From the IMG/VR virus record IMGVR_UViG_2913147268_000007: a stretch of DNA of 22,262 nucleotides; one strand, 5' to 3'. A program made the position numbers and the translations under genes. Below, in pieces: positions 1,740 to 18,513 of this stretch. Position 1 is the first letter of the stretch; the number at the start of each line of letters is the position of its first letter. The DNA is from a virus (Duplodnaviria; Heunggongvirae; Uroviricota; Caudoviricetes). The notes below the pieces were generated by a model. That model ran no database searches. It worked only from the letters and a program-made list of their open reading frames with translations, and had not been told where the DNA came from.

Positions 1740-1842
1740 AGCGCTTGCTCCTTTTTCGGGGAGGCGCTAACCTATCACTTGCTGAGGGTAGATGGTTAGG
1801 GCCTCGGGTTAACGTTAAAGTTGACTCGGGGCCTTTCCACAT
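1657..1842 (-). CDS. mok-like overlapping reading frame (modulator of killing), 61 aa
   Basis: ORF in a different frame that starts upstream of the hok-like ATG, overlaps it and ends inside the toxin ORF, which is the arrangement of mok relative to hok. Positional call only; its sequence is not diagnostic. Confidence 0.35.
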   Translation of the reverse strand: MWKGPESTLTLTRGPNHLPSASDRLAPPRKRSKRYVAKIAYGHHILRDGNPHHLDAARFAV

Positions 1843-1930
1843 CTGGCCTTCGGGTATTCCCTCCGACCATCAGCCGAAAGGCACCCGCACGTAATCTATC
1901 GCTTTTTTGTTACTCCGGCAATTCTGCCTG

Positions 1931-2191
1931 TTAATTCTGAGATAAAGGCAAACTCATCTGATTGTTTCCCCTGTGTGAAGCTGGCAGATCATGCCACGGG
2001 ATACCTTCTGAAGAGTGAACGCCGGAGGCGTGTTTTGATGTGAATTTATGGAAAGCTTCCAGTGTTGAGAAGCATACGCCGCATTCCAGATTGTTACACT
2101 GGTAATACTTTTGCCGCACGGTGTTTGAATCATTTTCCGGACGACTGGTGCGGATACGGGCAGATGCGCCACAAAGCGGACAACGGAACAT
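1931..2191 (-). CDS. ogr: Ogr/Delta-family zinc-finger late-gene transcription activator
   Basis: N-terminus MFRCPLCGASARIRTSR...YYQCNNLECGVCFST matches the Cys4 pattern of P2 Ogr (MFHCPLC...ARTSR...QC.N..C). RBS AAGGGAGG is upstream of the ATG (complement of 2189-2191). The 3' end is uncertain; the ORF is 86 aa against about 72 aa for P2 Ogr. Confidence 0.8.
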   Translation of the reverse strand: MFRCPLCGASARIRTSRPENDSNTVRQKYYQCNNLECGVCFSTLEAFHKFTSKHASGVHSSEGIPWHDLPASHRGNNQMSLPLSQN

Positions 2192-2231
2192 AGCGACCTC
2201 CCTTAACGTGGTGCTGCCTATTCTAAGTTGC

Positions 2232-3341
2232 TCACTCTGTTTCCGCTATCCATTCCGGGATTTTTGCCTCAAGCTCAAGCTGCGTGGTAAAACCGCTGTT
2301 ATCAATGGTGTGCTCGGCTTTTGCAATGATCCAGTCCTGATTATCAATCTCGCTTTTAAATCCTGTTACCGTGCCATGCATTTCGGGGTAGAGTTCTGCA
2401 CGTCCACGCGCCAGCGTGATGGAGAATGATGCGGCTCCGCGTTGTAGTTGCTGCCACTTTGCCGCCGCTGCGCGTCTTGCTGCCTGCTCGTTCTGATAAG
2501 TCTTGCGTAACACAAACACATTGCCTTCCGCGCCTTCCATATAATCACCTTCGCGGCTGCTGCTTTTCTCCTTTTTGGGTTTTGGCGGTTTACGGCGTTT
2601 CACGCTGACTTTTTTCTTTTTCCCGTAATTAAGATCAAGCCAGTAAGCGCGTACCCCCGTATACGCTTCGCGGTCAGCAATGCGGAACTGATGGCGATCG
2701 CCGCTGCTGCGTGTGATGGCAAACGATGGCAACGGCTGGCCCTGTGCGTTCACGCCACCGCCGGGCATGATGAATAACAGATTACCGCTTTTTACCGTGG
2801 TGATTGCGCCCAGCATTTCCGCCATGCGCGTAAGGAAGGACATGTCGCTTTCTTCGGTCTGGTCGGCGTGGTCGATTTCGATATCCATCAGCATTTCGCT
2901 GATTTGCGGTTTCAGACCATACCGATGAGCGATGGCGGATACCACACGCTCAACGGTCACATCATGCCAGGACACCTCACGTTTAACGTTAAATTCATCC
3001 CGAAAATCTGCGCTTCTGGCTGAAACAGTCAGCCTGTCCGGCGGTCCTTCGTGAGCGATTTCATCAACAATGTAAGTGCCTTTTTCTGTCAGCGGTTCTC
3101 CTTTCCAGCCAATGAGAACCGTCAGGCGCGCGCCCCGTGGCGGTAGCTGCAACTGACCATCCGCATCATCCAGCGTGATGGTGAGCTGGTCCGCCTCAAA
3201 TCCCCGGTTGTCGGTCAGTGACAGGCTCATCAGGCGCTCTGCCACGCCTGACAGCGTTTTACCCTCCGCGAGAATATCAAAATCCGGCATTTTCACGGGG
3301 TCTGTGCCCTGACTGAGCAATTGCATGGTGGTGTCGGTCAT
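2232..3341 (-). CDS. D: P2 gpD-like tail protein (late control gene D family)
   Basis: Track ORF 2232..3473 trimmed to the internal ATG at complement 3339-3341 (MTDTTMQLLSQG...), which is preceded by GGGAGGGAG. Size of about 369 aa and sequence character fit phage tail protein D. It sits beside ogr as in P2. Confidence 0.85.
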   Translation of the reverse strand: MTDTTMQLLSQGTDPVKMPDFDILAEGKTLSGVAERLMSLSLTDNRGFEADQLTITLDDADGQLQLPPRGARLTVLIGWKGEPLTEKGTYIVDEIAHEGPPDRLTVSARSADFRDEFNVKREVSWHDVTVERVVSAIAHRYGLKPQISEMLMDIEIDHADQTEESDMSFLTRMAEMLGAITTVKSGNLLFIMPGGGVNAQGQPLPSFAITRSSGDRHQFRIADREAYTGVRAYWLDLNYGKKKKVSVKRRKPPKPKKEKSSSREGDYMEGAEGNVFVLRKTYQNEQAARRAAAAKWQQLQRGAASFSITLARGRAELYPEMHGTVTGFKSEIDNQDWIIAKAEHTIDNSGFTTQLELEAKIPEWIAETE

Positions 3342-3498
3342 CTGCTCCCTCCCTGTGCGGCATGGTCGCATGTGCGTGCGGAGGGGGTTACTGCTTTTTG
3401 TTGTCGCCGTGGCGGGAGAACGGCGCAGGGGTGAGATTACGCGCGTGGTGGGTGATGATTGTTGCCGAATCATTTAACGGATACAAGGGGCTGAAGCT

Positions 3499-4683
3499 AT
3501 GAGTGAAACTCGTTTTCATGGTGCCCGTGTCACGGAAAGTACCGACCTGGTAACAGCGATTAATGATGTTGATTCCAGCGTTATCGGTATCGTGGCAACG
3601 GCGGATGATGCGGATGCGGAGCTGTTCCCGCTGAACAAGCCCACACTGCTGACCCGCGTCAATGACGTGCTGGGAAAATGCGGGACTACGGGGACGCTTT
3701 ATCGTGCGCTTAAGGCTATCGCAGACCAGGTGAGCACAAAAGTGATCGTCGTTCGCGTGGCTGAACACAAAGAAGAAGGCGGTAGGACGCAGGATCAACT
3801 GGTTATCGGTGGTTCTGAATCTGACGGCAGCTATACGGGGATGTATGCGCTGCTTGTTGCAGAGCAGGATGAAAGCATCGGATACCGTCCGCGTATTCTG
3901 GCCGCGCCGGAGCTGGACACGGAGGCGGTGACAAAATCCCTGTGCGTGATTGCGGGTAAACTGCGCGCGTTTGTGTATGCCACATGTCATGGTTGTAACA
4001 CGATGGCTGAGGCGATTACCTACCGCCAGAAATTCAACGAACGTGAGGTGATGCTCTTATGGCCTGACTTCATCGCCTACAACCCGAAAAGTGGCAAAAA
4101 CGAAACGTTCCCCGCGCCTGCTTATGCGTGCGGCCTTCGTGCGTACATTGACCATGAGCAGGGCTGGCACAAATCGCTGTCCAACGTTCCGGTTAAAAAT
4201 GTGCTGGGGATGTCGAGGCATGTGTTCTGGTCGTTACAGGCCGAAGACAGTGATGCCAACAGCCTCAACAACAAAGAAATCACGACCATTATTCGTCGTA
4301 ACGGGTTCCGCTTCTGGGGCAACCGCACACCGGAAACGAACGCCTACATCTTTGAGGTGTATACCCGAACCGCACAGGTGCTGGCTGATTCAATTGCGGA
4401 AGCGCAGTTTGAAACCATCGACAGTCCACTGACGCCTGCGAACGTGAAGGATGTTATCAGTGCCATCAGGGCAAAATTGGATTCGCTGGTTACTGCCGGG
4501 AAACTGATTGGCGCGGAGTGCTGGTATGACGTGGTGGATAACGGCACCACGGATTTACGTCAGGGGCGTGTGCGTATTCGCTACAAATATACGCCCGTTC
4601 CCCCGCTGGAAGACATGGAGCTTTACCAGACGTTTACTGATGAATTCTTTGGTCCCGCATTTGCGGTGCTGGGAGGTGCCTGA
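3499..4683 (+). CDS. FI: Contractile tail sheath protein (P2 FI-like), 394 aa
   Basis: Conserved sheath blocks shared with P2 FI: ADDADAE.FPLNKP, KLRAF.Y, WPDF, IDHEQGWHKSLSNV, IRRNGFRFWGNRT, YTPVPPLE. RBS aagggg upstream. Confidence 0.93.
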   Translation: MSETRFHGARVTESTDLVTAINDVDSSVIGIVATADDADAELFPLNKPTLLTRVNDVLGKCGTTGTLYRALKAIADQVSTKVIVVRVAEHKEEGGRTQDQLVIGGSESDGSYTGMYALLVAEQDESIGYRPRILAAPELDTEAVTKSLCVIAGKLRAFVYATCHGCNTMAEAITYRQKFNEREVMLLWPDFIAYNPKSGKNETFPAPAYACGLRAYIDHEQGWHKSLSNVPVKNVLGMSRHVFWSLQAEDSDANSLNNKEITTIIRRNGFRFWGNRTPETNAYIFEVYTRTAQVLADSIAEAQFETIDSPLTPANVKDVISAIRAKLDSLVTAGKLIGAECWYDVVDNGTTDLRQGRVRIRYKYTPVPPLEDMELYQTFTDEFFGPAFAVLGGA

Positions 4684-5195
4684 TGGCTGTACCAAAACAT
4701 CTTCGCTTTTTTACGTTGTTTGTGGATGGTGAAAACGAAGTGGGTAAAGTGACATCCGTCACGCCGCCCAAACTGACGCGCAAAACCGACAGCTATCGTG
4801 GTGGTGGCATGATGGGAGCAGTAAGTATTGATCTCGGTCTGGACGACTCCGCGCTTGATGCGAGCTTTGTCATGGGGGGAGCTGTTCGTGCACTGTTCCT
4901 TAAGTATGGCGGCACGATTGACGGCACGCTGCTGCGTTTTGCGGGTGAATATTACACCGATGCAGAAAGCGATCTGTATGAAATCGAGATGCGCGGGCGT
5001 GTGACGGAAATTGATATGGGGGAGGCCAAACAGGGCGAAGCCACATCACACACTTACGCTGTCAAAAACACCTACTACAAGCTGAGCGTTAACGATCGCC
5101 CGCTGTGGGAAATCGACCTGTTGAACCACATCTACCGGAAGGACGGCAAGGACATTGTGCCTGACCGCATTCGTTCCGCGCTTGGGCTTGGCTGA
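4683..5195 (+). CDS. FII: Tail tube protein (P2 FII-like), 170 aa
   Basis: ATG overlaps the sheath stop (TGATG). PKLTRK, YRGGGM, LGLDD, RFAG.Y and MRGR motifs are typical of FII tube proteins. Confidence 0.9.
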   Translation: MAVPKHLRFFTLFVDGENEVGKVTSVTPPKLTRKTDSYRGGGMMGAVSIDLGLDDSALDASFVMGGAVRALFLKYGGTIDGTLLRFAGEYYTDAESDLYEIEMRGRVTEIDMGEAKQGEATSHTYAVKNTYYKLSVNDRPLWEIDLLNHIYRKDGKDIVPDRIRSALGLG

Positions 5196-5250
5196 TAAGT
5201 AATATGCAGGCGGCGCAGTGCGTCGCCTCTGACTGAAAAGGAGACAACTG

Positions 5251-5625
5251 ATGAAAGATATCGATACTGAAACCCGGAATAACACCGTAGCGGATGATGT
5301 GACGTCAGGTGAGGATATGGCTGTCGAACGTGGTGTAAAACTTTCCCGGCCAATTGAGCGTGGTGCCGAAAAAATCACATATGTGGAGATCACCGGGGCT
5401 ATTGAGCAGGCGGGATCCCTGCGTGGTCTGTCGCTGTCTGATGTGCTGAATCTGAAAGCGGATACCATGTTCACGCTGTTGCCTCGCGTGACCTCGCCAC
5501 GACTGGATGAAGTGATGATTAAAAAAATGTCGTCACGCGATTTTATTCAGTTGTGCGCTGTGGCTGTAAATTTTATGAGCGAGCCAGACTCTGGCGCGAA
5601 GAGCGTGCAGGAGACGGCAGCGTAA
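5251..5625 (+). CDS. E: Tail assembly chaperone E (zero-frame product)
   Basis: 124-aa ORF in the position between tube and tape measure that gpE occupies in P2 and lambda G occupies in lambda; acidic N-terminus. Confidence 0.8.
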   Translation: MKDIDTETRNNTVADDVTSGEDMAVERGVKLSRPIERGAEKITYVEITGAIEQAGSLRGLSLSDVLNLKADTMFTLLPRVTSPRLDEVMIKKMSSRDFIQLCAVAVNFMSEPDSGAKSVQETAA

Positions 5626-5789
5626 TCACCCTGGTGTGCTTTGAGCACATCGAAGATCTGGTGGCGGATATTGCCGCCATTTTCAACTGGTCGCCCGCCG
5701 AAATCTTCATGATGACGCCCGGCGAAGTGGTTAGCTGGCGTGAGCGGGCGGCACTTCGCAGCGGGAATGCAGATAATGAAGACTCTTGA
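5251..5789 (+). CDS. E': E+E' fusion chaperone made by programmed -1 ribosomal frameshift
   Basis: The -1 frame is open from 5523 to 5789 and overlaps the tape-measure start. A canonical X_XXY_YYZ heptamer A_AAT_TTT lies at 5568-5574 with the zero-frame codons AAT (Asn) and TTT (Phe). The predicted product is about 179 aa. Confidence 0.6.
5568..5574 (+). promoter_or_regulatory. Candidate -1 frameshift slippery heptamer A_AAT_TTT
   Basis: Fits X_XXY_YYZ in the E reading frame. An alternative slip site is the A7 run at 5521-5527, but a -1 frame stop (TAA 5520-5522) makes tandem slippage there less canonical. Confidence 0.5.
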
Positions 5790-8583
5790 CATCCGGGTCG
5801 CTTTCAGCGCCGTTGACAGGCTGACCCGGCCTGCCGAAAACGCCCGCCGCCTGATGGGGCAGTTTGGTGACTCCATTCAGCGAACGCAGGGGGCGATCAA
5901 AAATCTCGAGCGTCAGGCGCGTTCATTTGAGCGCGCCCGCGACGCTGTCAGTAAAGCGGATGCGGGTATCGTGAAAGCACGACGCCAGCTTAACGCCCTT
6001 AATCAGTTACAACGCACGGGTACAGTGCTCAGCGAAAAACAACAAAAGCTGATGCAGCAGTTAAGCACCCGGCTTGAACGCCTGAATGAATCGCGCACAC
6101 GGGAAATTCAGAAAATGCGGGAGCTTGGCGGAGAACTGAAACGCCACGGCATTTCCCTGACAGGCAGCGATAACACCATCCAGCAGGCCATCAGACGCAC
6201 CGAACAATACAACAACCAGCTTGAACGCGAACGGCAGGCGCTTGCGCGTGTAACGCAGGCTCGTGAGCGGTATTCGCGCGCGCAGGAAACCGCGGGAAAA
6301 CTGAAAACAGGTGGTGCGCTGGCAATTGGTGCGGCAGCGGCGGGCGGCTATGCTGCCGGGCGTTTTTTGCAGCCCGCGATCGGGTTCGGCAAAGAGATGT
6401 CCCGCGTTCAGGCGCTGACGCGAATCGACAAAAACAGCCCGCAGTTTAAGGCGCTGCGTGAGCAGGCGTTAAAACTTGGCTCTGAAACACAGTTTACTGC
6501 GAGTGATGCCGCCAGTGGGCAGAGCTTTCTGGCAATGGCTGGTTTTACTCCGCAGGCCATTCAGGCCGCATTGCCCGGTGTTCTTAATATGGCGCTGGCA
6601 GGTGGCGTCGAACTCGGCGAGACGGCTGATATAGGCTCCAATATCCTCACACAGTTCAACCTGACAGCCGATCAAATGGACCGGGTTGGCGATACGCTGA
6701 CAGCGGCATTCACCCGGACCAATACTGATTTACGCGCGCTGGGCGAAACCATGAAGTATACCGGTCCGGTTGCCGCAAAACTTGGTATCAGTCTTGAAGA
6801 AGCGGCAGCCATGGCCGGGATGCTTGCCAATAATGGTCTTCGTGGAAGCGATGCTGGTACGGCCATGCGCGCAAGTCTGTCCCGCCTTGCATCACCGCCA
6901 AAAGCTGCGGCTGATGCGCTGAAAGAGCTGGGGGTGTCAGTTGCTGACGCCAGAGGCAAAATGCGCCCGATGGAGGATGTGCTGCTTGATCTCTATAAGG
7001 CGACACAAAAATACGGACAGGTGGACCAGGTTTCCTTCTTCAAGGACATCGCCGGAGAAGAGGCGTTCGTTGGTTTGCAGACGCTTGTTGCGGCGGCTGG
7101 TTCAGGAGAGCTGCAAAAACTGACCAGAGAATTGCAGGGGGCAAGGGGAGAGGCCGATCGCGTTGCAAAAGTAATGGCCGATAATCTTGATGGGGACCTG
7201 AAAAATCTCGACAGCGCATGGGAAGGTCTTCGTATTCGCATCAGTGATCTGGTTGACGGTCCGCTGCGTTCTGTCACGCAGTGGCTCACGCGGGTGCTTG
7301 AAAAAATCACCTCGCTGGCGCAGGCCCATCCGGTACTGACGCGCCAGCTACTGATAGCAGGCGGTGCGTTGCTGGCAATGACTGCAACGGTTGGCTCGTT
7401 GTCGCTGGCTATTGGTGTGCTTGCTGGCCCGCTGGCAAAACTGCGTCTTGGCTTTTCCCTCCTGACCGGTTCAATGAATGCTGTCAGACTCCTGCCAGCA
7501 CTATGGGGAATGGTGACGGGTTCCGTTTCGTTACTGGGGGGCGCTATCGGGGCGTTGTTCAGTCCGGTCGGCCTTATCGTGGCTGCGCTTGCCGGAGCTG
7601 CCGTTCTCATCTGGAAATACTGGGATCCCATCAGGGCATTTTTTGCCGGGGTGTTCAGCGGGATTATGGAAAGGCTGACCCCGTTGCGCGAAACCTTTGA
7701 ACGGTTTGGTCCTGTTTTTGACGCAATCGGGAGTGGGATCAGCCAGGTGTTTAACTGGTTTAAATCGCTGCTGTCTCCGATGGAGTCCAGCAAGGAAACT
7801 CTGGATAAATGTACCAGTGCTGGCGAGATATTCGGTAACGTTCTTGGCGGTGCGTTACAACTTGTTCTGACACCTGCAAAAATGTTGCTGGATACGCTGG
7901 CGTGGATACTTGAAAAGCTTGGTGTGCTTCCGGATGAAGCGGAAAGGGCGCGCAAGAAAATCGAAGACGCACAGCGTGCGGCCATTCTTCAGGACAAGGT
8001 TGCCTTGCTTCAGGGGGACCTGGCGAAAATCAATCCGCCGAAGCCTGTGGAAAATGGCAATGGCACCGGAGGTGATAACCCCAAAGACAATAAACCGCTC
8101 ACAGACAGCAATACCGGTACGCTGCGCAGACTCAGCAAAATTGCTGATAACACAGGTAAGCTGGTTGAGGAGACGAAAAAACGCATTGGCCCCGGCGATA
8201 TTGTCTTTAAAAACCTGCCCCGAGCACTTGCTGTTCGTGGGGAGTGGCAGGAGCGGAAGATTGCGCAGGTCAGTAAGCCTGCCCCCGCAATTAATATCAC
8301 ACCCGTGGTCCCGGCTCCGCTGCCTCCGGCGCTGGTCCCTGTTGTTGCGGCCAGCTCCCGCCCGGTGGCGGAGGCTATACGATCTCCAGTGGCATCAGTT
8401 CCTGTAACTTCCCGTAACCGGGAGCCTGTTGCCTCCGGATTTGGTGGTGAAATTCATGTTCATCTGCATAACGTTGTTACGCAGAATCCCCGCGAACTGG
8501 CGAAACTGGTCGGTGAAATGGTCAGGGCAGAAATGGAACGGCGCGCCCGTGCCGGGCGTGGCAGTTTTTACGATAAAGATTGA
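5767..8583 (+). CDS. T: Tail tape measure protein (P2 gpT-like)
   Basis: An ORF of about 940 aa following E/E', with a coiled-coil-rich N-terminus, Gly/Ala-rich hydrophobic segments in the middle and a C-terminal region. The start is uncertain among GTG 5740, ATG 5767 and ATG 5776. Confidence 0.9.
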   Translation: MQIMKTLDIRVAFSAVDRLTRPAENARRLMGQFGDSIQRTQGAIKNLERQARSFERARDAVSKADAGIVKARRQLNALNQLQRTGTVLSEKQQKLMQQLSTRLERLNESRTREIQKMRELGGELKRHGISLTGSDNTIQQAIRRTEQYNNQLERERQALARVTQARERYSRAQETAGKLKTGGALAIGAAAAGGYAAGRFLQPAIGFGKEMSRVQALTRIDKNSPQFKALREQALKLGSETQFTASDAASGQSFLAMAGFTPQAIQAALPGVLNMALAGGVELGETADIGSNILTQFNLTADQMDRVGDTLTAAFTRTNTDLRALGETMKYTGPVAAKLGISLEEAAAMAGMLANNGLRGSDAGTAMRASLSRLASPPKAAADALKELGVSVADARGKMRPMEDVLLDLYKATQKYGQVDQVSFFKDIAGEEAFVGLQTLVAAAGSGELQKLTRELQGARGEADRVAKVMADNLDGDLKNLDSAWEGLRIRISDLVDGPLRSVTQWLTRVLEKITSLAQAHPVLTRQLLIAGGALLAMTATVGSLSLAIGVLAGPLAKLRLGFSLLTGSMNAVRLLPALWGMVTGSVSLLGGAIGALFSPVGLIVAALAGAAVLIWKYWDPIRAFFAGVFSGIMERLTPLRETFERFGPVFDAIGSGISQVFNWFKSLLSPMESSKETLDKCTSAGEIFGNVLGGALQLVLTPAKMLLDTLAWILEKLGVLPDEAERARKKIEDAQRAAILQDKVALLQGDLAKINPPKPVENGNGTGGDNPKDNKPLTDSNTGTLRRLSKIADNTGKLVEETKKRIGPGDIVFKNLPRALAVRGEWQERKIAQVSKPAPAINITPVVPAPLPPALVPVVAASSRPVAEAIRSPVASVPVTSRNREPVASGFGGEIHVHLHNVVTQNPRELAKLVGEMVRAEMERRARAGRGSFYDKD

Positions 8584-8589
8584 GGAGTC

Positions 8590-9084
8590 ATGGCCATGAT
8601 GATGATCTACGGCATGTTTGTTTTTGAGCTGCGCACGCTGCCGCATCAGCAGTTACAGCAAAACAAAAGCTGGCGGCATGTGAAAAATGAACGCGTTAAC
8701 CGTTCAGCAAGCTGGCAGTATATCGGTGCAGGTGATGATCGCATCGTTCTTTCTGGTGTGCTTTATCCTGAAATTACAGGTGGCGAAGTGTCGCTGTCGC
8801 TGCTGACCACGCAGGCGTATACAGGACGACCCTGGCCTTTGATTGATGGCGTCGGGCAGATTTACGGCATGTATGTCCTGACTGAAACGAATACGACCCG
8901 CTCCGAGTTTGATCGCTACGGTAAGGCGAAAAAGATAGAATTTTCACTGACTCTTGAACGCTGTGATGAGGATTTGCGGGAGCGCCTGCAATCCTCATCG
9001 TTCAGTGATATGCTGTCCGGCTTCAAAGATAAGGTGACATCATCTCTTAACAGCGCGGCCAGTTCAGTTAAAGGGCTGTTCTGA
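8590..9084 (+). CDS. U: Tail protein U (P2 gpU-like), 164 aa
   Basis: GMFVFELRTLPHQQLQ...SWRHV.N.RVNRS...LSGVLYPEITGG closely parallels P2 gpU. RBS gaggag upstream. Confidence 0.88.
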   Translation: MAMMMIYGMFVFELRTLPHQQLQQNKSWRHVKNERVNRSASWQYIGAGDDRIVLSGVLYPEITGGEVSLSLLTTQAYTGRPWPLIDGVGQIYGMYVLTETNTTRSEFDRYGKAKKIEFSLTLERCDEDLRERLQSSSFSDMLSGFKDKVTSSLNSAASSVKGLF

Positions 9085-9094
9085 TTTAACACAA

Positions 9095-9122
9095 AAACCG
9101 CTAATGGTCAGATTAGCGGTTT
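9095..9122. terminator. Bidirectional hairpin between convergent U and invertase genes
   Basis: Perfect 11-bp inverted repeat aaaccgctaat / attagcggttt with a 6-nt loop, followed by tcattttcc. The invertase stop codon (complement of 9113-9115) lies inside the hairpin. Confidence 0.55.
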
Positions 9123-9712
9123 TCATTTTCCTGAGTCTGCCCGGTTGTTTCTTCAGTCTGTATATCGCCTACAGGGTGATAACGATAAATCGTCGATGTG
9201 CCAATGCCGTAAATTATTGCCAGTTGTTTTCTGTCGTGCCCGTTTTTGATTAGCCTTGCTATTTGCTCATGCTGTTCTTTTGTCAGCTTCGGTCGACGTC
9301 CGCCTGTGCGCCCCCTTGCGCGCGCTGCCGCCAGCCCGGCCAGTGTACGTTCAACAATTAATTCACGTTCCATTTCAGCCAGGGCACCCATCACGTGGAA
9401 GAAAAAACGCCCCATTGGAGAAGATGTGTCTATGCTGTCGGTCAGACTGCGAAAATTAATCCCTCGCTCCCGTAGTTCCCCGACGAGAGAAATCAGATGT
9501 TTCATGCTTCGCCCGAGGCGATCCAGTTTCCAGACAACCAGCGTGTCACCTTTTTGAAGGCGCTTTAAAGCGCGTTTTAATCCCGGTCGGTCTGTCTTTG
9601 TCCCGCTTAATTTATCTTCAAATATTTGTTCACATCCTGCACAAACAAGAGCGTTTCGTTGCAGGTCTGTATTCTGGTCATTTGTTGATACCCTTACATA
9701 GCCAATCAGCAC
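9113..9712 (-). CDS. Serine recombinase, DNA invertase of the Hin/Gin/Cin/Pin family
   Basis: N-terminus (V)LIGYVRVSTNDQNTDLQRNAL carries the catalytic serine; C-terminal HTH GRRPKLTKEQHEQIARLIKNGHDRKQLAIIYGIGTSTIYRY matches the Hin DNA-binding domain. The likely start is GTG at complement 9710-9712, with GGGAGA upstream; the track ORF begins at TTG 9730. Confidence 0.92.
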   Translation of the reverse strand: MLIGYVRVSTNDQNTDLQRNALVCAGCEQIFEDKLSGTKTDRPGLKRALKRLQKGDTLVVWKLDRLGRSMKHLISLVGELRERGINFRSLTDSIDTSSPMGRFFFHVMGALAEMERELIVERTLAGLAAARARGRTGGRRPKLTKEQHEQIARLIKNGHDRKQLAIIYGIGTSTIYRYHPVGDIQTEETTGQTQENENR

Positions 9713-9766
9713 ACTGAATCTCCCGTCCAAAAGCGCAAATCATGCCATGCAGGCCAGAAACGGCCA

Positions 9767-9792
9767 TTATTTAAAACCTCGGTTTACGAGAA
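9767..9792. promoter_or_regulatory. gix/hix-like invertase crossover site
   Basis: ttatttaaaacc tc ggtttacgagaa is an imperfect 12-2-12 dyad around the AAACC..GGTTT core typical of hix/gix/cix sites. It lies about 55 bp from the invertase start. Confidence 0.7.
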
Positions 9793-10410
9793 CTCGGCAC
9801 AAGCGGGGAGAAAATACCGTTACTCAGTACAGCGAATACCTGGACTAATCGACAAACATTCAGCGGTGGCCTTTCTGGTGAACTATCCGGCAATGCTTCT
9901 ACAGCTGCAAAATTAAAAACTGCCAGGAAAATAAGCAATGTGGCTTTTGATGGTTCCTCCGATATCACATTAAAAGCAAGTCATGTTGGTGCGTTTGCCT
10001 TAGGGAAAACAGGAAGCACCGTTGCGAATGATAAAGCAGTTGGATGGAACTGGAGTAGCGGAGCCTATAACGCAACTATTAGTGGTGCATCAACGTTAAT
10101 TATTCATTTTTATATGGGAGAAGGAAGTTGTCCTGCAGCTCAGTTTCGGATTAATTATAAAAATGGCGGTATTTTTTATCGTTCAGCCCGTGATGGTTAT
10201 GGTTTTGAAGCCGACTGGTCCGAATTTTACACCACCACCAGAAAACCTTCAGCAGGAGATGTTGGTGCACTGCCGTTATCTGGTGGTCAACTGAATGGTG
10301 CACTGGGTATCGGAACATCCAGTGCTCTTGGCGGTAATTCGATTGTATTGGGTGATAATGACACGGGCTTTAAACAAAATGGCGATGGTAATCTGGATGT
10401 TTATGCTAAT
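9778..10410 (+). other. Silent promoterless tail-fibre C-terminal cassette, 3' end lost in N-run
   Basis: The frame opens exactly at the crossover site, with an in-frame TAA at 9772-9774 immediately upstream. It encodes LGLRELGTSGEKIPLLSTANTWTNRQTF..., identical at the start to the expressed fibre cassette at 15261 onward and diverging toward the C-terminus. Confidence 0.7.
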
Positions 10411-10420
10411 NNNNNNNNNN
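10411..10420. other. Assembly gap (10 N)
   Basis: Literal run of n. Confidence 1.
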
Positions 10421-10501
10421 TTAACTGATATCACTAAAAATGCCGCGTACGGCGTCGATATCGGCAGCCTGGTGCTGGAAATCAATAATCCCGCAGCATA
10501 A
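10421..10501 (+). other. 3' end fragment of an unidentified upstream gene
   Basis: Open frame reading ...LTDITKNAAYGVDIGSLVLEINNPAA* from the gap edge. By P2 synteny the gene upstream of R would be a lysis gene, but the sequence is not diagnostic. Confidence 0.3.
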
Positions 10502-10524
10502 GGAAGAGCAGGAGAGCAAAACAG

Positions 10525-10992
10525 ATGCTTAAGACAAACAGTCTGCGAGAGTCCATGCTTCATGGGTGTCGGTGGTGCCAGGCTAATCCCGAGAAATTCA
10601 CCATTTTCGTGGAGAGCGGCAACATTGAAACGACCGGAGAAGCGCCCTCGTTTGTTTACCGCTATCAGATGGTGATGTTTGTCATGGATTACGCCGGAGA
10701 GCTGGACGACCTCACGCTGCCGCTGCTGGCGTGGTTATCCGAAAATCAGCCACAGTTGTTGCTCAATCCGGAGCGTAATCAGGACATCAAATTTTCTGCC
10801 GTTATCAATGACGATGACAGCGCCGATCTCCTGTTTACGCTCCCCCTGCGGGAACGCGTTCGCATCACGCGCAACAGTCAGGGCACACCGCAGGCAGAAC
10901 ACCTGCCGGAGCCAAAACCCCGTCTGCCTTCTTCCGAAGGCGACTGGTCGCATGTATTCCAGGATGTGACGTGGGGTGAAAGCGATGGATAA
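10525..10992 (+). CDS. R: Tail completion protein R-like, 155 aa
   Basis: MLKTNSLRE... and LPLLAWLSENQP parallel P2 gpR (MLKPDSLRR..., VPVLAWLRENQP). Same length as P2 R; RBS aggag upstream. Confidence 0.75.
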   Translation: MLKTNSLRESMLHGCRWCQANPEKFTIFVESGNIETTGEAPSFVYRYQMVMFVMDYAGELDDLTLPLLAWLSENQPQLLLNPERNQDIKFSAVINDDDSADLLFTLPLRERVRITRNSQGTPQAEHLPEPKPRLPSSEGDWSHVFQDVTWGESDG

Positions 10993-11620
10993 GGCATTCA
11001 CCCGCGTGGATGAAACCTTTGAGGCTATCCGCGACAGCCTGAATCAGCAGGCCATCAATAACATCGCCAGAAAGCTGGCACAGGATTTACGTCGCGCCCA
11101 GCAGGCACGTATCCGGTCACAAAAAGCGCCGGACGGGACCGAATGGACACCACGCAGACGCCGCGTAACCCGGATACAGGAGCGCATTCGCTTTATCTGG
11201 AATAACGAAGCACGCACGCTGAAAAACTGGCATCACGACACAGGGAAATACGGGCGAACCATTACCGGGTGGGATGAGGATAAAAACAATATCCGCACGT
11301 TTTACCGGGATGACATCGACCGTTTTCTGGAAATACGCACCCGGCGCATCAACCAGGACAGCACAAAGCGCGTCCCCATGTTCGTAAAACTGCGCACCGC
11401 CCGCTACCTGAAAGCCCGTGCAGATGCCTCCGGTGTGACGGTGGGTTACAGCGGCGTGGCCGCACGTATTGCACGCGTTCATCAGTTCGGTGAGCGCGAT
11501 CAGGTTGCGCCGGGCATTTTCACCGATTACCCGGTACGTGAGCTGTTGGGTATCAGCCAGGCAGATGAGCGCCTGATTTATAACACGGTGCTGGGCCGGA
11601 TTGCGGAGGCTGTACGGTGA
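10985..11620 (+). CDS. S: Tail completion / virion morphogenesis protein S-like
   Basis: Assigned by its position between R and V and its basic, Arg-rich character. The start is ambiguous between GTG 10976 and ATG 10985 and overlaps the R stop. Confidence 0.6.
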   Translation: MDKAFTRVDETFEAIRDSLNQQAINNIARKLAQDLRRAQQARIRSQKAPDGTEWTPRRRRVTRIQERIRFIWNNEARTLKNWHHDTGKYGRTITGWDEDKNNIRTFYRDDIDRFLEIRTRRINQDSTKRVPMFVKLRTARYLKARADASGVTVGYSGVAARIARVHQFGERDQVAPGIFTDYPVRELLGISQADERLIYNTVLGRIAEAVR

Positions 11621-12198
11621 GCGCAGAACTCATGCGACTGCTGAGCAACATCATCCGCACCGGGATCATCTCTGAAGTTGATGAGAAGTCCTGGCGCGTG
11701 CGCGTTCGCAGCGGCGAACTGGAAACAGGCTGGTTGCGCTGGAACACCACGCGCGCGGGAGCCTTCAATGTGTGGCTGCCGCCATCACCAGGCGAACAGG
11801 TGGTAATTGCCTGCATTGGCGGCAACCCGGAAACCGCCATGATAATTGGCAGCCTGTGGAGTGATGCCAGTCCGGCCCCCGGCAAAAGCCTGAAAGAAAT
11901 CGTGGTCAGCGCGCCGGATGGCGCGGTGTTCCGCTACGACGCAGACGCTGGCGCACTGAGCGCCAGCGGCATGAAAACAGCCACCCTGCAGGCATCCGTC
12001 AGCGTGACACTGGATACGCCCGTCGTGGAATGCACAAACCTTCTGAGAACGGCGACGCTTGACGTCACAAAAGAGGGAAAGATGAGCGGCAATATCACGC
12101 ACAGCGGCGGCAATTTCACCTCAAACGGCATTACCGTGCATACGCATAAGCACGGTGGCGTTAAAGGTGGCAGCGATTCGACAGGAGGCCCGCAGTGA
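11617..12198 (+). CDS. V: Baseplate spike protein V, 193 aa
   Basis: IRTGIISEVD near the N-terminus and C-terminal NGITVHTHKHGG..GGSDSTGG match P2 gpV (IRTGII..., NGKVLHTHKHPGDSGGTTG). GTG start overlaps the S stop (GTGA). Confidence 0.88.
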   Translation: MSAELMRLLSNIIRTGIISEVDEKSWRVRVRSGELETGWLRWNTTRAGAFNVWLPPSPGEQVVIACIGGNPETAMIIGSLWSDASPAPGKSLKEIVVSAPDGAVFRYDADAGALSASGMKTATLQASVSVTLDTPVVECTNLLRTATLDVTKEGKMSGNITHSGGNFTSNGITVHTHKHGGVKGGSDSTGGPQ

Positions 12199-12545
12199 CA
12201 ACCCGCTACACAGGAATGAACCCGGACGGGACGGGAAACCTGAACGATATGGAGCACCTGAAACAGTCAGTCAGGGACATCCTGATCACCCCGCTGGCAA
12301 GCCGGGTTATGCGACGGGAATATGGCAGCCTTGTGCCTGATTTGATTGACGAACCCATGAATAACACCACGCGTCTGCAATGCATGAGTGCTGCCGTGAT
12401 TGCGCTGACACGATGGGAACCCCGCATTGCCCTGGACGCCATCGACGTTGTCTGGAAGGCAGGAGGCCGCGCCGGGGTGACGCTGTCGGGCACTGTCATG
12501 CAGACCATGCAGAATGTTGAATTAACCATCACGCTGAGAGAGTAA
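12195..12545 (+). CDS. W: Baseplate protein W (GPW/gp25 family), 116 aa
   Basis: MTTRYTGMN...ITPLASRVMRREYGSL...WEPRI parallels P2 gpW (MTARYLGMN...RTPVGSRVMRRDYGSL...WEPRV). GTG start overlaps the V stop. Confidence 0.88.
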   Translation: MTTRYTGMNPDGTGNLNDMEHLKQSVRDILITPLASRVMRREYGSLVPDLIDEPMNNTTRLQCMSAAVIALTRWEPRIALDAIDVVWKAGGRAGVTLSGTVMQTMQNVELTITLRE

Positions 12546-12548
12546 ATC

Positions 12549-13445
12549 ATGCCTGCTGTTGATCTTTCCCAGTTACCGGAACCCGCCATCATCGCGGAGC
12601 CTGATTTTGAGGCAATTCTGGCTGACACAAAGGCCATGATGATTGCGTCCTATCCTGCCGAACAGCGTGAAGCCGTCTCCGCCGCGCTGGAGCTGGAATC
12701 AGAACCCCTGAACGTTATCGCTCAAACCATGTCGTTTCGTGAAATGCTGTTACGCCAGCGGGTTAACGAGGGCGCACGCGCCTGCATGTTAAGCCACGGT
12801 TCAGGGACAAACCTGGACAACCTCGCGGGCAATATGAACACAAAGCGCCTGGTTATCACTCCGGCAACGGATACCACCGACGCGGTGATGGAGAGCGACA
12901 CCTCGCTGAGACTGCGGGCGCAGCGGGCGTATGACGGCCTGAGTGTTGCTGGCCCGTCAGGTGCATACGAGTATTTTGCACGCAGCGCCAGCGGTCTGGT
13001 GCGTGATGCGCGGGCCATCAGCCCGTCTCCGGCCTGTGTGACGGTTTCCATTCTGTCCACTGAAGGCGACGGCACAGCAACGGAGGCGTTGCTTAATACC
13101 GTTCGCGCCGTTCTGAATGCAGAGGATACCCGCCCGGTGGCCGACCGACTGACCGTACAGAGCGCCAGCATCGTGACATGGCGGCTGAATGCAAAACTGT
13201 ACTTTTACCCCGGCCCGGAATCCGAACCTATTCTGGCTGCGGCTGAATCGTCGTTCAGGAAGTGGCTGGCTGAGCAGGGGCTTATTGGTCAGGACGTGGC
13301 GTTGTCAGCCATTGCTGCCGCACTTCATGTGCACGGCGTGCAACGCGTGGAGATAATCGAACCCACACAGAATATGGCCATCAGCGACATACAGGCGGCG
13401 CGCTGTGAGTCATTCACCATCAGCGAAGGTGGGCGTAATGAGTAA
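12549..13445 (+). CDS. J: Baseplate protein J, 298 aa
   Basis: Size, position after W and sequence character fit P2 gpJ (about 302 aa). Confidence 0.85.
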   Translation: MPAVDLSQLPEPAIIAEPDFEAILADTKAMMIASYPAEQREAVSAALELESEPLNVIAQTMSFREMLLRQRVNEGARACMLSHGSGTNLDNLAGNMNTKRLVITPATDTTDAVMESDTSLRLRAQRAYDGLSVAGPSGAYEYFARSASGLVRDARAISPSPACVTVSILSTEGDGTATEALLNTVRAVLNAEDTRPVADRLTVQSASIVTWRLNAKLYFYPGPESEPILAAAESSFRKWLAEQGLIGQDVALSAIAAALHVHGVQRVEIIEPTQNMAISDIQAARCESFTISEGGRNE

Positions 13446-13968
13446 TTCACTGTTACCGCCATCAGCCAGCAATTTCATGCGTTGCGCCGAAGCTGTCGGA
13501 GCGCGCATTACAGACATCCCGGTAGACCTCAACACGCTGTGGTCACCGGACACCTGCCCGGTGCATCTGCTGCCTTATCTCGCCTGGGCATTTTCCGTTG
13601 ACCGCTGGGATCGCAACTGGCCGGAAGAGACAAAGCGACAGGTGATTCGTGATGCATGGCTGATACACCGACACAAAGGGACCATCAGCGCACTGCGCCG
13701 GGCCATTGAGCCGCTGGGATACCTCATTCGCGTGTCTGAGTGGTGGGAGTTCGGCGGAGAACCGGGAACATTTACCGTTGAAGTCGGCACGCTGGACAGT
13801 GGCGTGACGGAGGAAATGTATCTGGAAATGGAGCGGTTGATTGCTGATGCCCGCCCGGTCAGCCGCCACATGACAGGGCTGAATATCATTCAGGAGATTC
13901 AGGGAGATATTTTCGCGGCGGCAGCAACTTACGACGGCGAAGTCATTACCATTTATCCGGACGATTAA
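13438..13968 (+). CDS. I: Baseplate protein I, about 176 aa
   Basis: ATG at 13438 overlaps the J stop (ATGAGTAA). The length equals P2 gpI and it sits immediately upstream of the tail fibre gene. Confidence 0.85.
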   Translation: MSNSLLPPSASNFMRCAEAVGARITDIPVDLNTLWSPDTCPVHLLPYLAWAFSVDRWDRNWPEETKRQVIRDAWLIHRHKGTISALRRAIEPLGYLIRVSEWWEFGGEPGTFTVEVGTLDSGVTEEMYLEMERLIADARPVSRHMTGLNIIQEIQGDIFAAAATYDGEVITIYPDD

Positions 13969-13970
13969 GC

Positions 13971-15970
13971 ATGAGTACCACAACACGTAAATTTAAAACC
14001 GTTATCACCGATACGGGTGCCAAAAAATTAGCTCAGGCAGCCGCGCCAGATGGTAAGCCTGTCCGCCTGACTCATATGGCCGTGGGCGACGGTGGCGGCA
14101 CGTTGCCCACACCAGACAGTAAGCAGACCCGTCTGGTGCATGAGGTGTGGCGACATACTGTTAATCGCGTCATCCTGGACGCAACACATCAGAACCGCAT
14201 TATTGCGGAGCTGGTTATTCCTCCTGAAACGGGCGGATTCTGGATCCGGGAAATTGGTGTATTTGATGAGCACGGCGATTTAATCGCGGTGGGCAATACT
14301 GCCGAAAGTTACAAGCCAGCCGTTGCCGAAGGGTCCGGTCGTGCACAAACATTTCGCACCATTCTGACCGTATCCAGCACTGCCACCGTGGTGCTTACCG
14401 TGGATAACACCATGGTGATGGCCACAGTGGATTACGTGGATGACAAACTGAAAGAGCATGAACAGTCACGACGTCACCCGGACGCCTCGCTGACCGCAAA
14501 AGGCTTTGTTCAACTCAGTAGCGCCACTAACAGCGTGTCTGAAACGCAGGCTGCAACGCCGAAAGCAGTAAAGGCCGCGTATGACCTTGCTAACGGTAAA
14601 TATACTGCGCAGGATGCCAGCACGACGCGAAAAGGCCTTGTCCAGCTCAGTAGCGCCACCAACAGCACGTCTGAAACGCAGGCTGCAACGCCGAAAGCAG
14701 TAAAGGCCGCGTATGACCTTGCTAACGCAAAATATACCGCTCAGGACGCCACGACGGCACAAAAAGGGATAGTCCAGCTCAGTAGTGCCACCAACAGCAC
14801 GTCTGAAACACTGGCCGCGACATCGAAAGCTGTTAAGGCGGTAATGGATGAAACGAACAAGAAAGCGCCCTTAAATAGTCCTGCACTGACCGGAACGCCA
14901 ACAANNNNNNNNNNNNNNNNNNNNNNNNNNNNNNNNNNNNNNNNNNNNNNNNNNNNNNNNNNNNNNNNNTCGTTATGGCTGCGATTGCCGCCCTTGTAGA
15001 TTCGTCACCTGATGCACTGAACACGCTGAACGAGCTGGCTGCGGCGCTGGGCAACGACCCGAATTTTGCGACCACCATGACTAACGCGCTTGCGGGTAAG
15101 CAACCGAAAGATGCCACCCTGACGGCGCTGGCCGGACTTACTACTGCGGCAGGCAAGTTTCCGTATTTTACGGGGAATGATGTCGCCAGCCTGGCAACCC
15201 TGACAAAAGTCGGGCGGGATATTCTTGCGAAATCGACCGTTGCTGCCGTTATCGAATACCTCGGTTTACGAGAACTCGGCACAAGCGGGGAGAAAATACC
15301 GTTACTCAGTACAGCGAATACCTGGACCAATCGACAAACATTCAGCGGTGGCCTTTCTGGGGAACTGTCCGGCAATGCCGCTACTGCAACAAAGCTGAAA
15401 ACAGCACGAAAAATTGCTGGAGTTGGTTTTGATGGTTCTAGCGATATTTCAATTAGTGCCAAAAATGTCAATGCATTTGCACTCCGACAAACAGGTAATA
15501 CTGTTAATGGTGATACATCCGTTGGATGGAATTGGGATAGTGGTGCATATAACGCCATGATTGGTGGTGCATCTGCATTAATTCTTCACTTTAATATAAA
15601 TGCTGGTAGCTGTCCTGCCGTACAATTCCGTGTGAATTATAAAAATGGTGGCATTTCCTACAGGTCGGCTCGTGATGGTTATGGGTTTGAATTAGGTTGG
15701 TCAGATTTCTATACCACGACACGAAAACCTTCAGCGGGAGATGTTGGTGCATATACGCGGACAGAATGTAACTCAAGGTTTATTACAGGTATTCGCCTTG
15801 GCGGTCTGTCATCTGTTCAGACATGGAATGGTCCCGGCTGGTCTGACAGGTCAGGTTATGTCGTTACGGGTTCAGTTAACGGAAACCGTGATGAATTAAT
15901 TGATACAACACAGGCAAGGCCAATTCAGTATTGCATTAATGGGACGTGGTATAACGCGGGGAGTATTTAA
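13971..15970 (+). CDS. H: Tail fibre protein (gpH-like), interrupted by a 65-N gap at 14905-14969
   Basis: The N-terminal domain, the stretch ...PALTGTPT [gap] ...YVMAAIAALVDSSPDALNTLNELAAALGNDP..., and the EYLGL junction all parallel P2 gpH. The C-terminus ends with the conserved ..INGTWYNAGSI tip motif. The reading frame across the gap cannot be verified. Confidence 0.85.
14499..14870 (+). repeat. Three tandem 132-nt (44-aa) repeats in the tail fibre shaft
   Basis: Repeated unit KG(F/L/I)VQLSSATNS.SET.AAT.KAVKA.... The repeats also create the spurious antisense ORF 14466..14762. Confidence 0.8.
14905..14969. other. Assembly gap (65 N) inside the tail fibre gene
   Basis: Literal run of n. 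Confidence 1.
15250..15275. promoter_or_regulatory. In-frame gix-like crossover site inside the tail fibre gene
   Basis: ttatcgaatacc tc ggtttacgagaa; its right half is identical to the site at 9767-9792. It encodes IEYLGLRE at the constant/variable boundary. Confidence 0.65.
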
Positions 15971-15972
15971 CG

Positions 15973-16506
15973 ATGATGCACTTAAAAAACATTACTGCTG
16001 GCAACCCTAAAACAAAAGAGCAATACCAGCTAACAAAGCAATTTAACATCAAATGGCTTTATTCAGCTGATGGAAAAAACTGGTATGAGGAACAAAAGAA
16101 TTTCCAGCCAGACACTTTGAAAATGGTCTATGACCATAACGGCGTTATTATTTGTATTGAAAAGGATGTTTCAGCAATTAATCCGGAAGGCGCAAGCGTC
16201 GTTGAATTACCTGATATTACAGCAAATCGCCGGGCTGATATTTCGGGGAAATGGATGTTCAAAGATGGCGTAGTGGTAAAGCGAACTTATACCGAGGAAG
16301 AGCAGAGGCAACAAGCGGAAAATGAAAAGCAGAGCCTGTTGCAACTTGTCAGGGATAAAACTCAGCTATGGGACTCACAGCTACGGCTGGGCATCATTTC
16401 CGACGAGAATAAACAAAAATTAACCGAGTGGATGCTCTATGCGCAGAAAGTCGAATCCACAGACACCTCCAGCCTGCCAGTAACATTTCCCGAACAACCT
16501 GAATGA
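15973..16506 (+). CDS. G: Tail fibre assembly chaperone (Tfa, gpG-like / Mu U-like), 177 aa
   Basis: Starts 2 nt after the fibre stop. [14 protein letters not shown]...[20 protein letters not shown]... is the typical Tfa pattern. Confidence 0.9.
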   Translation: MMHLKNITAGNPKTKEQYQLTKQFNIKWLYSADGKNWYEEQKNFQPDTLKMVYDHNGVIICIEKDVSAINPEGASVVELPDITANRRADISGKWMFKDGVVVKRTYTEEEQRQQAENEKQSLLQLVRDKTQLWDSQLRLGIISDENKQKLTEWMLYAQKVESTDTSSLPVTFPEQPE

Positions 16507-16510
16507 GACA

Positions 16511-16539
16511 AGGCCCGATAACGGGCCTTAATTTTTATT
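16511..16539. terminator. Bidirectional hairpin terminator between convergent tfa genes
   Basis: Stem aggcccg / cgggcct with loop ataa, then taatttttatt. Confidence 0.6.
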
Positions 16540-16939
16540 CAGGCTTTTGTGGCCATTCAGGATTTGCCGTATCCACACGGTTGACCAGAACACTGTAGCG
16601 TTCCCATGCTTCCAGTCGTGTGCGTTCCTCGTCTGTTGCCATATTCAGCCTGACAGCGCGTTCCAGCGGCTGGATGACTGATTCAGCTTCGGAAAGCAAT
16701 GCGGCCTTTTGTGATTCGGCCTGTTGTTGCTGTTCGTCAGCCGTATAAATCCGTTTAACCACAGCTCCGTCCTTAAACATCCACTTACCGGAATCATCGG
16801 TCCGACGATTGGCCGTTATATCGGGAACCTCGACGACGCTAAAACCTTCGGGATTAAGCGTGGAGGCATCTCTGGTGATGGCGACAATAATATTATTTTC
16901 ATCGTAAACAATCTTTATGGTGTCTGGCTGAAAGTTTTT
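16535..16939 (-). CDS. Tail fibre assembly chaperone, second type; N-terminus lost in N-run
   Basis: ...[46 protein letters not shown]...PEWPQKPE. Convergent with the tfa at 15973 and of a different C-terminal type. Confidence 0.85.
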
Positions 16940-16949
16940 NNNNNNNNNN
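16940..16949. other. Assembly gap (10 N)
   Basis: Literal run of n. Confidence 1.
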
Positions 16950-17240
16950 TACGTCCATGTTATGCGCTTTGTTCCCGGAAGCATTCAAAGTAATAAGACC
17001 ATAAATATTACGGGGCGTGTTAATCCCTCGGATTACGGTAACTTTGATTCCCGTTATGTGAAAGATGTTCGACTTGGTTCNNNNNNNNNNAACGTCCATG
17101 TTATGCGCTTTGTCTCCGGAAGCATTCAAAGTAATAAAACCATAAATATTACAGGGCGTGTTAACCCCTCGGATTACGGTAACTTTGATTCCCGTTATGT
17201 GAAAGATGTTCGACTTGGTTCACAGCAATATTATGGAGTG
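16950..17240 (+). repeat. Two near-identical 141-bp copies separated only by a 10-N gap
   Basis: 16950-17090 and 17101-17240 differ at about 5 positions and end at the same point, so this is probably an alternate-allele or collapsed-repeat contig. Confidence 0.8.
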
Positions 17241-17405
17241 AACAACTGGCAAACATGGAATTTCCAGTGCCCTTCAGGTCATGTATTGTCTGGTATTAAT
17301 GTTCAGGATACAGGGTCTAACTCTGCCGATAATATAGCGGGCGTTTATTACAGACCCGTTCAAAAGTATATAAATGGCACCTGGTATAATGTAGCGAGCG
17401 TTTAA
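16950..17405 (+). CDS. Tail fibre C-terminal variable cassette, 5' partial; contains a 10-N gap
   Basis: Encodes ...[35 protein letters not shown]...[17 protein letters not shown] with the conserved fibre-tip ending. There is no start, constant region or crossover site on this block. Confidence 0.75.
17091..17100. other. Assembly gap (10 N)
   Basis: Literal run of n. Confidence 1.
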
Positions 17406-17406
17406 T

Positions 17407-17940
17407 ATGATGCACTTAAAGAACATAAAAGCGGGTAATGCTAAAACACTGGAACAGTATGAGTTAACAAAGAAACACGGAGTTATCTGGCTTTACTCTG
17501 AGGACGGAAAAAACTGGTATGAGGAAGTGAAAAACTTTCAGCCAGACACCATAAAGATTGTTTACGATGAAAATAATATTATTGTTGCCATAACCAAAGA
17601 TGCCTCCACACTTAACCCTGAAGGTTATAGCGTCGTTGAGATTCCTGATATTACCGCCAACCGGCGTGCTGACGACTCAGGTAAATGGATGTTTAAAGAT
17701 GGCGCAGTCATTAAACGTGTATATACCGAAGAAGAGTTGCGCCTACAGACGGAAAACCAGAAAAAAATATTATTACAGCAGGCCAGAGAAAAAACGCAGT
17801 TCTGGCAAACACAGCTTACTTTGGGGATTATCACTGATTCAGACAGACAGCAACTGATGAACTGGATGCGATACGTGCAACAGGTTGAGACAACTGATAC
17901 CTCGGTTCTTCCTGTAACATTCCCGGAACCACCAGAATAA
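17407..17940 (+). CDS. Tail fibre assembly chaperone, 177 aa
   Basis: [30 protein letters not shown]...; starts 1 nt after the upstream fibre cassette stop. Confidence 0.9.
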
Positions 17941-17943
17941 GAA

Positions 17944-17970
17944 AAGGCCCGTACGGGCCTTAATTTGTTG
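17944..17970. terminator. Bidirectional hairpin terminator between convergent tfa genes
   Basis: Stem aggcccg / cgggcct with loop tac, then taatttgttgtt. Confidence 0.6.
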
Positions 17971-18498
17971 TTATTCTGGTTTCTGTGGCCATTCAGGCTT
18001 TGCAGTATCCACACGGCTGACCATAACGCTGTAGCGTTCCCATGATTCCAGTCGTGTGCGTTCCTCATCAGTTGCCATATTCAGTCTGACAGCACGTTCC
18101 AGCGGTTGAATCACAGACTCCGCTTCGGAAAGCAAAGCGGCTTTTTGTAACTCTGCCTGCTGTTGCAGTTCCTGTTTTGTATATTCCCGCTTTACTACTT
18201 TACCATCCAGAAACTTCCAGTTTCCCGAGATATCGGCGCGACGGTTGGCTGTTATATTCGGTAACTCAACAACACTTAACCCGTCAGGGTTAAGTGTTGA
18301 TACGTCTTTCTCAATACAACGAATAATCCCCTTCTGGTCATAAGCTATTTTTAAAGTATCATCCTGAAAGTTTTTTAATTCGTCATACCAGTTTTTACCG
18401 TCTTCTGTATATAGCCAGATAACGCCAGCTTTTTTCGTAAGCTGATACTGCTCAATGGTTTTGGGGTTTCCGGCGGTAATATTTTTCAGATGTTGCAT
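17971..18498 (-). CDS. Tail fibre assembly chaperone, 175 aa
   Basis: [23 protein letters not shown]...[11 protein letters not shown] caGGAGaatat is upstream of the ATG (complement of 18496-18498). Cognate to the minus-strand fibre cassette upstream of it. Confidence 0.9.
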
Positions 18499-18513
18499 AT
18501 ATTCTCCTGATGG

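Follow-up and report, generated by a model that had tools for sequence, protein, structure and literature searches.

The stretch from 9767 to 10410 is almost certainly the invertase-proximal end of an invertible tail-fibre segment in Phi1, a P88-like (Xuanwuvirus) P2-type prophage at serS. We analysed it within a window of 22,262 nt, an E. coli ST131 draft scaffold that consists of six contigs and carries two prophages, Phi1 at serS and Phi4 at trp. The original prediction, a silent fibre cassette that can be expressed only by recombination with a site in the fibre gene, is supported as essentially right, with the corrections given below. Forde et al. 2014 (PMC4134206) had described the locus together with its sites and switching, making this a known case, real but ordinary. 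It adds little to invertase-driven fibre switching, a textbook host-range mechanism in Mu, P1 and e14.

As reference we used E. coli O25b:H4-ST131 strain EC958, whose finished chromosome (locus L001) places the stretch in its genomic setting. There the prophage runs through ogr and gpD (−), then sheath, tube, E, E', tape measure and gpU (+), to a convergent recombinase (−). Beyond the recombinase lie the incomplete fibre (+), two opposed assembly genes, the full fibre (−) and baseplate genes I, J, W and V. This order differs from that of P2: the sheath-to-gpU block (3499–9084, +, in the window) is inverted relative to the baseplate/fibre operon and converges on the invertase.

Crossover sites and the two orientations

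The site beside the invertase has one partner, inside the fibre gene. The 26-bp gix-type sequence TTATTTAAAACCTCGGTTTACGAGAA lies at 9767–9792 (+), as originally predicted, and is identical to Mu gixR at 22 of 26 positions. Searching the window found it again at 15249–15274 (+) with 3 mismatches, where 0 such matches are expected by chance. Two candidate partners had been proposed for alignment with the 9767 region: the copy at 15249–15274 is the true recombination partner, and the one at 19528–19553 belongs to Phi4 near trp, whose sites lie ~530 kb from those of Phi1 in EC958. The Phi1 loci of EC958 and JJ2434 contain two sites only. In Table 3 of Forde et al. 2014 (PMC4134206) the site at 9767–9792 is Phi1_3prime, given as gccaTTATTTAAAACCTC GGTTTACGAGAA, and that at 15249–15274 is Phi1_5prime, given as gccgTTATCGAATACCTC GGTTTACGAGAA. 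The 26-bp sequences of the window, gccaTTATTTAAAACCTCGGTTTACGAGAA and gccgTTATCGAATACCTCGGTTTACGAGAA, are identical to those of EC958 Phi1. In both copies the central dinucleotide TC (9779–9780 and 15261–15262) forms positions 2–3 of a CTC leucine codon, so the reading frame is preserved across the crossover, as had been claimed.

In the chromosome the two sites face each other. Both lie on the + strand of the window, as direct repeats 5.5 kb apart, because the contigs are mis-ordered and flipped in the scaffold. In EC958 and JJ2434 they are inverted repeats ~2.77 kb (2773 bp) apart. A partner in the fibre gene was correctly foreseen, and its direct orientation in the window is a scaffolding artefact. 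Forde et al. 2014 (PLoS One 9:e104400; PMC4134206) placed the sites within a 508-bp imperfect inverted repeat of 77% identity flanking a 2773-bp invertible segment, and found ~50% of PacBio reads in each orientation in one EC958 culture.

Complete genomes carry both orientations. We joined 9113–9780 to 15263–15970 as a synthetic flipped junction of 1376 nt, and searched complete genomes with 8590–10410 (1821 nt) as the window-state query. The flipped junction, which the original prediction had suggested seeking in inverted orientation, occurs in many complete ST131 genomes at the corresponding map position, 100% identical throughout its 1376 nt. Places covering at least 80% of the query were found in 283 genomes for the flipped junction and in 261 for the window state. 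Complete genomes match the window-state query along its entire length (100%) at 99.8–99.9% identity; the best place reaches at least 99% identity in 194 records.

The window itself displays a single orientation, spread over separate and mis-oriented contigs; EC958 and JJ2434 exemplify the two states. A 2782-nt block (L001 15174–17955) that covers the segment and both sites is inverted between them at 99.7% identity, and the outer half-sites are unmoved, TTATTTAAAACC beside the invertase and TTATCGAATACC in the fibre gene. The assembly genes WP_001554335.1 and WP_000972134.1 have swapped strands in JJ2434, and its fibre has 740 residues against 661 in EC958. That fibre keeps the same 425-residue constant part and continues in frame, after ...AAVIEY, with the exact EC958 cassette sequence, which bears out the predicted expression through recombination with the fibre-gene site. 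In the annotation of both strains each cassette is followed by its own assembly gene, in a mirror-image layout. Pfam detects Caudo_TAP domains.

The in-frame TAA described beside the cassette is real, and its role is probably incidental. It lies at 9772–9774 in the outer half-site, immediately 5' of the cassette frame and in frame with it; the fibre-side half-site has GAA there, one G-to-T change away. By analogy with Mu the stop appears unnecessary for silencing, because Mu carries CAA at the same codon and works in the same way; there the parked S' frame remains open further upstream. The invertase-proximal half-site with TAA reads TTATYTAAAACC and its Mu counterpart TTATCCAAAACC. We scanned IMG/VR for the shared core AANACCTCGGTTTACNNGAA (loci L005–L124), counting a site as invertase-adjacent if an invertase lay within 450 nt. 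TAA occupied the codon in 55 of 67 invertase-adjacent sites and in 2 of ~74 others, which mostly had GAA. These sequences are mostly near-identical enterobacterial prophages, 38 of which share one 30-mer, so TAA reads as a common variant of the invertase-proximal half-site and not as a product of independent selection.

On the opposite strand, the TAA region holds a −10-like AAATAAT/GATAAT ~55 nt upstream of the invertase start. We speculate that this element may constrain the TAA bases. It is unlikely that the TAA is itself selected, as an insulator against upstream read-through or as a by-product of the −10-like element, or else that the Phi1 invertase inverts Phi4 or recombines the sites of both prophages.

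Invertase, parked cassette and expressed fibre

The enzyme next to the site is a Gin-type serine DNA invertase of 199 aa (9113–9712, −; RefSeq WP_000905061.1), annotated in EC958 as 'recombinase family protein'. It starts at a GTG at 9712, and the ORF finder lengthens it to a TTG at 9730. Pfam detects Resolvase (1.5e-50) and HTH_7 (4.4e-13), a catalytic and a C-terminal helix-turn-helix domain. Residues 1–183 match the Mu Gin structures 4m6f and 3uj3 at E = 3e-100, in agreement with the original prediction of an adjacent invertase in a switch setting. Residues 1–103 differ from Mu Gin by a single K/R exchange; the N-terminal motif MLIGYVRVSTNDQ with catalytic Ser9 is the same in both, and the wild-type Met114 is kept. 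The catalytic role of Ser9 is described in PMC3575834, as is the Fis-independent Gin mutant M114V. The Q..RL residues of helix 1 of the DNA-binding domain, which McLean et al. 2013 (PMC3798978) name as invertase-specific, are present as 'heQiaRLi'.

The 5' part of the invertase gene is nearly that of Mu gin, with 148 of the first 150 nt and 243 of the first 250 nt identical. The recombinational enhancer is said to lie inside gin, reportedly located there by Kahmann et al. in 1985. From the sequence, switching in Phi1 may depend on Fis and on an enhancer in this 5' region. Between gpU and the invertase, a strong hairpin followed by a T-run (9094–9123) is likely a bidirectional terminator.

The adjacent invertase is presumably the acting enzyme. 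A real switch catalysed mainly by another chromosomal invertase, for instance that of Phi2, has only a small chance of being the true account. Such an enzyme is available, since ST131 carries other invertases (Phi2, according to PMC4134206), and the Phi4 segment inverts despite the truncation of its own invertase, which points to action in trans in this strain background. Against this, the gene next to the Phi1 site is intact and encodes a catalytic domain nearly the same as that of Mu Gin; its place is the canonical one, and both the site and the 5' region resemble those of Mu.

The silent cassette, Hv', is an intact coding sequence that lacks a beginning. Its start-less frame (9775–10410, +) stays open for 212 codons up to the assembly gap, and the full EC958 cassette encodes 316 residues and a stop; an open frame running from the crossover core and encoding a fibre C-terminus had been predicted correctly. 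Nucleotide identity to the expressed fibre is exact over 70 nt (9776–9845). The proteins share 40 consecutive identical residues, which upholds the identity noted earlier and extends its length from 27, and 134 of 212 residues overall. The first codon, outside the crossover, encodes N where the expressed fibre has Y. Across Phi1, the two cassettes share the 508-bp imperfect repeat at 77%, and in its distal part Hv' shares ~85% identity with fibre genes annotated in P2-like phage isolates.

Hv' has neither a start nor a constant domain, as originally proposed. Its earliest in-frame start-type codon is a GTG at 9940, and the sole Pfam hit is to a gp37_C-like domain (gp37_C 6.6e-08). Only the true fibre gene, at 13971–14904, has the Phage_fiber_2 repeats and an N-terminal tail-collar domain. 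A simple scan found no sigma-70 promoter on either strand of 9000–10410 (1.9 expected by chance); it is insensitive, having likewise missed the invertase promoter. The P2 Ogr box TGT-N12-ACA gave two matches in the window, fewer than expected by chance; neither lies close to the cassette or precedes the late genes.

It is very improbable that Hv' is a decaying pseudogene fragment no longer part of any switch. EC958 annotates it as 'tail fiber protein, incomplete, missing N-terminus', PGAP flags it as a pseudogene in both EC958 and JJ2434, and Phi1 may be a defective prophage. Decay is contradicted by a frame intact for 316 codons, by both orientations occurring among near-identical genomes and within one culture, and by JJ2434, in which the cassette completes an intact 740-aa fibre frame accompanied by its own chaperone gene. 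What automated annotation labels a pseudogene in the parked state is a functional alternative allele.

The cassette also holds the sole base substitutions between its 10.4-kb contig and EC958. All three (10076, 10081 and 10122) are nonsynonymous (T/N, S/G and E/D) and cluster in a 47-nt stretch of the gp37_C-like part. This cluster could stem from diversifying selection, from gene conversion by a paralogous cassette or from consensus mixing in the short-read assembly. Elsewhere on the contig, the tape-measure gene differs from EC958 by a one-base deletion and a one-base insertion 4 nt apart (7851–7855), a compensated frameshift that alters one or two codons.

The expressed fibre gene H spans 13971–15970 (+), is interrupted by 65 Ns at 14905–14969 and is 100% identical to EC958 H (661 aa). 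Its N-terminal part matches Phage_tail_fib (2.6e-54) and Phage_fiber_2 (2.9e-62). The constant part reaches the core at 15261–15262, and 15263–15970 is the current variable part. The assembly gene of the expressed cassette follows at 15973–16506 (+; Caudo_TAP 3.6e-37; WP_000972134.1 in EC958 and JJ2434). For the silent cassette, the 3' 405 nt of the chaperone gene lie at 16535–16939 (−), on a contig that the scaffold shows in reverse; in EC958 this gene is L001 16138–16665, tail fiber assembly protein WP_001554335.1. Within the constant part of H, 14498–14761 is a 132-nt tandem duplication of 88% identity corresponding to the Phage_fiber_2 repeats. The 65-N gap represents 51 nt in EC958 and falls within the tandem fibre repeats.

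The sites, frames, inverted arrangement, two orientation states and enzyme family, each documented here or in the literature, suggest the following model, and nothing observed contradicts it. The chromosomal order is invertase (−), site, [Hv'(+), tfa'(+), tfa(−), Hv(−)], site, H constant part (−) and baseplate genes, tfa standing for a tail-fibre assembly gene. H would be transcribed with the phage late operon, and only the variable 3' cassette abutting its constant region would be translated. Likewise, only the chaperone gene of the abutting cassette would be co-expressed, and after a flip the matching chaperone would become co-transcribed. The parked cassette, facing the invertase, would go untranslated because it appears to lack a promoter, ribosome-binding site, start codon and the 425-residue constant part, and it is probably transcriptionally silent as well.

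Inversion itself would follow the scheme of Gin, Hin and Cin. By that analogy, dimers of the Gin-type invertase (9113–9712) would bind both 26-bp sites, assemble with Fis on the enhancer, cut at the central TC by means of Ser9, turn the strands by 180 degrees and rejoin them, flipping the 2773-bp segment. This would bring the other cassette in frame behind the constant part (...AAVIEY|LGLRELGTSG...), yielding a fibre with a different receptor-binding tip. The tip swap presumably alters host range.

Comparison with Mu, P88 and other invertible segments

Phi1 in EC958 is the same locus, with the same invertase and 2773-bp segment. The window is 99.95–100% identical to it, differing by the three nonsynonymous changes in the silent cassette, by the tape-measure indel pair and in being a fragmented draft.

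A close mechanistic parallel is the G segment of Mu with Gin (S/U, S'/U'). Both have a constant 5' part, a gix site, two opposed cassette-chaperone pairs, a second gix site and the invertase. The frame crosses the site in the same way, as ...FIQNLGLQE in Mu and ...VIEYLGLRE in Phi1, with TC at the same codon positions; the Mu site lies in the S gene, and its annotated G-segment boundary falls within the same CTC codon. The invertases are near-identical over the first ~120 residues and have diverged in the C-terminal DNA-binding domain. Intergenic DNA between site and gin is also highly similar. Unlike Mu, Phi1 is of P2 type (Peduoviridae), its cassettes are unrelated to those of Mu beyond the site, it has TAA where Mu has CAA, and its two cassettes share the 508-bp imperfect repeat (77%).

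Escherichia phage P88 (Xuanwuvirus, Peduoviridae) has the same gene order, from gpD through sheath, tube, E, tape measure and gpU to a convergent invertase and invertible cassettes. P88 is an isolated phage, with 96.6% identity through gpU and the invertase. Homology ends at query position 1198, equivalent to window 9787 and inside the crossover site, and the cassettes of P88 are different.

Related switches include the P1 C segment with Cin, the e14 P segment with Pin, Salmonella Hin and p15B Min, all driven by Fis/enhancer-dependent serine invertases whose 26-bp sites have a 2-bp core. Cin, Pin and Min swap fibre C-termini, whereas Hin switches a promoter and not a coding 3' end. Min of p15B, as generally known, acts on several sites and many cassettes, against two sites in Phi1. 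We rejected an R64-type shufflon (Rci tyrosine recombinase, more than two 19-bp sfx sites), since the recombinase is of serine type and Phi1 has only two sites.

Scaffold structure and the Phi4 prophage

Mapping on EC958 resolved how the window was put together. Five runs of N (10411–10420, 14905–14969, 16940–16949, 17081–17090 and 19889–19898) separate its six contigs. Contig A (1–10410) equals L001 5412–15821 in forward orientation at 99.95% identity. Contigs B (10421–14904; L001 22765–18282) and C (14970–16939; L001 18230–16261) are reversed, and contig D, of 131 nt (16950–17080, +; L001 15822–15952), is forward and misplaced; all three are 100% identical. In EC958, D directly continues the end of A at 10410, and the silent-cassette frame goes on in it. 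Contigs E (17091–19888) and F (19899–22262) belong to the Phi4 prophage next to trp, on the basis of their match to JJ1886 (locus L003). Read against EC958, the true Phi1 order is A, D, ~308 missing nt, the reverse of C and the reverse of B. The joins across N gaps are no real adjacencies; that of A to B has no counterpart in EC958, where the joined ends lie 6.9 kb apart on opposite strands.

An assembly chimera, in which the invertase-site-cassette junction or the shared 70 nt is a short-read repeat artefact, has a negligible probability. The original prediction had itself raised this possibility for 9730–9800, and the window, with its five N runs and two interleaved, mis-oriented prophages, invites it. 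That junction and all of 8590–10410 are nonetheless contiguous in PacBio-finished EC958 and in the complete genomes that match the window-state query over its full length, and contig A runs on to 10410, the point from which the sequence resembles the Phi4 cassette. Equally negligible is excision between direct repeats 5.5 kb apart instead of inversion, an idea prompted by two + strand sites in window coordinates and countered by contigs B and C being reversed relative to A in every complete genome examined, with inverted sites 2.8 kb apart, and by the false A-to-B join.

The contig breaks are located where the Phi1 and Phi4 cassettes are 94–96% similar. Invertible prophage segments and repeats between prophages break up short-read assemblies. 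The resulting scaffolds can interleave two prophages and reverse some contigs, so that inverted sites look direct, and they call for caution.

Phi4 contributes the third site and a dead invertase. The site at 19528–19553 is Phi4_5prime (...TTATCGAATACCTC GGTTTACAGGAA) in Table 3 of Forde et al. 2014 (PMC4134206), who reported that the Phi4 invertase is truncated and proposed that Phi4 inverts in trans. In the window, the invertase remnant at 19918–20100 stops after ~60 codons. The Phi4 segment (17091–19888) has the opposite orientation to that in JJ1886, with 17091–19559 matching L003 4001–6469 and 19533–19888 matching L003 3377–3022 in reverse. Inversion of a segment whose own invertase is truncated implies action in trans. 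The inner half-sites, GAGAA and AGGAA, trade places when the orientation changes, so the crossover must fall within the 12 nt ACCTCGGTTTAC.

Recombination between the two prophages was considered and rejected. We joined the invertase side of Phi1 to the Phi4 cassette Hv_b and found this artificial junction in none of 5426 complete genomes. The best full-context matches were the native Phi4 arrangement, at 76% coverage, and one Phi4-like locus at 86%.

Downstream of the dead Phi4 invertase, two assembly-gene fragments (20147–20293 and 21196–21343) form direct repeats of ~89% identity and enclose a class I SAM-dependent methyltransferase gene (20299–20967, −). A Rha-family regulator lies at the end of the window. 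The duplicated fragments look like debris of earlier cassette turnover.
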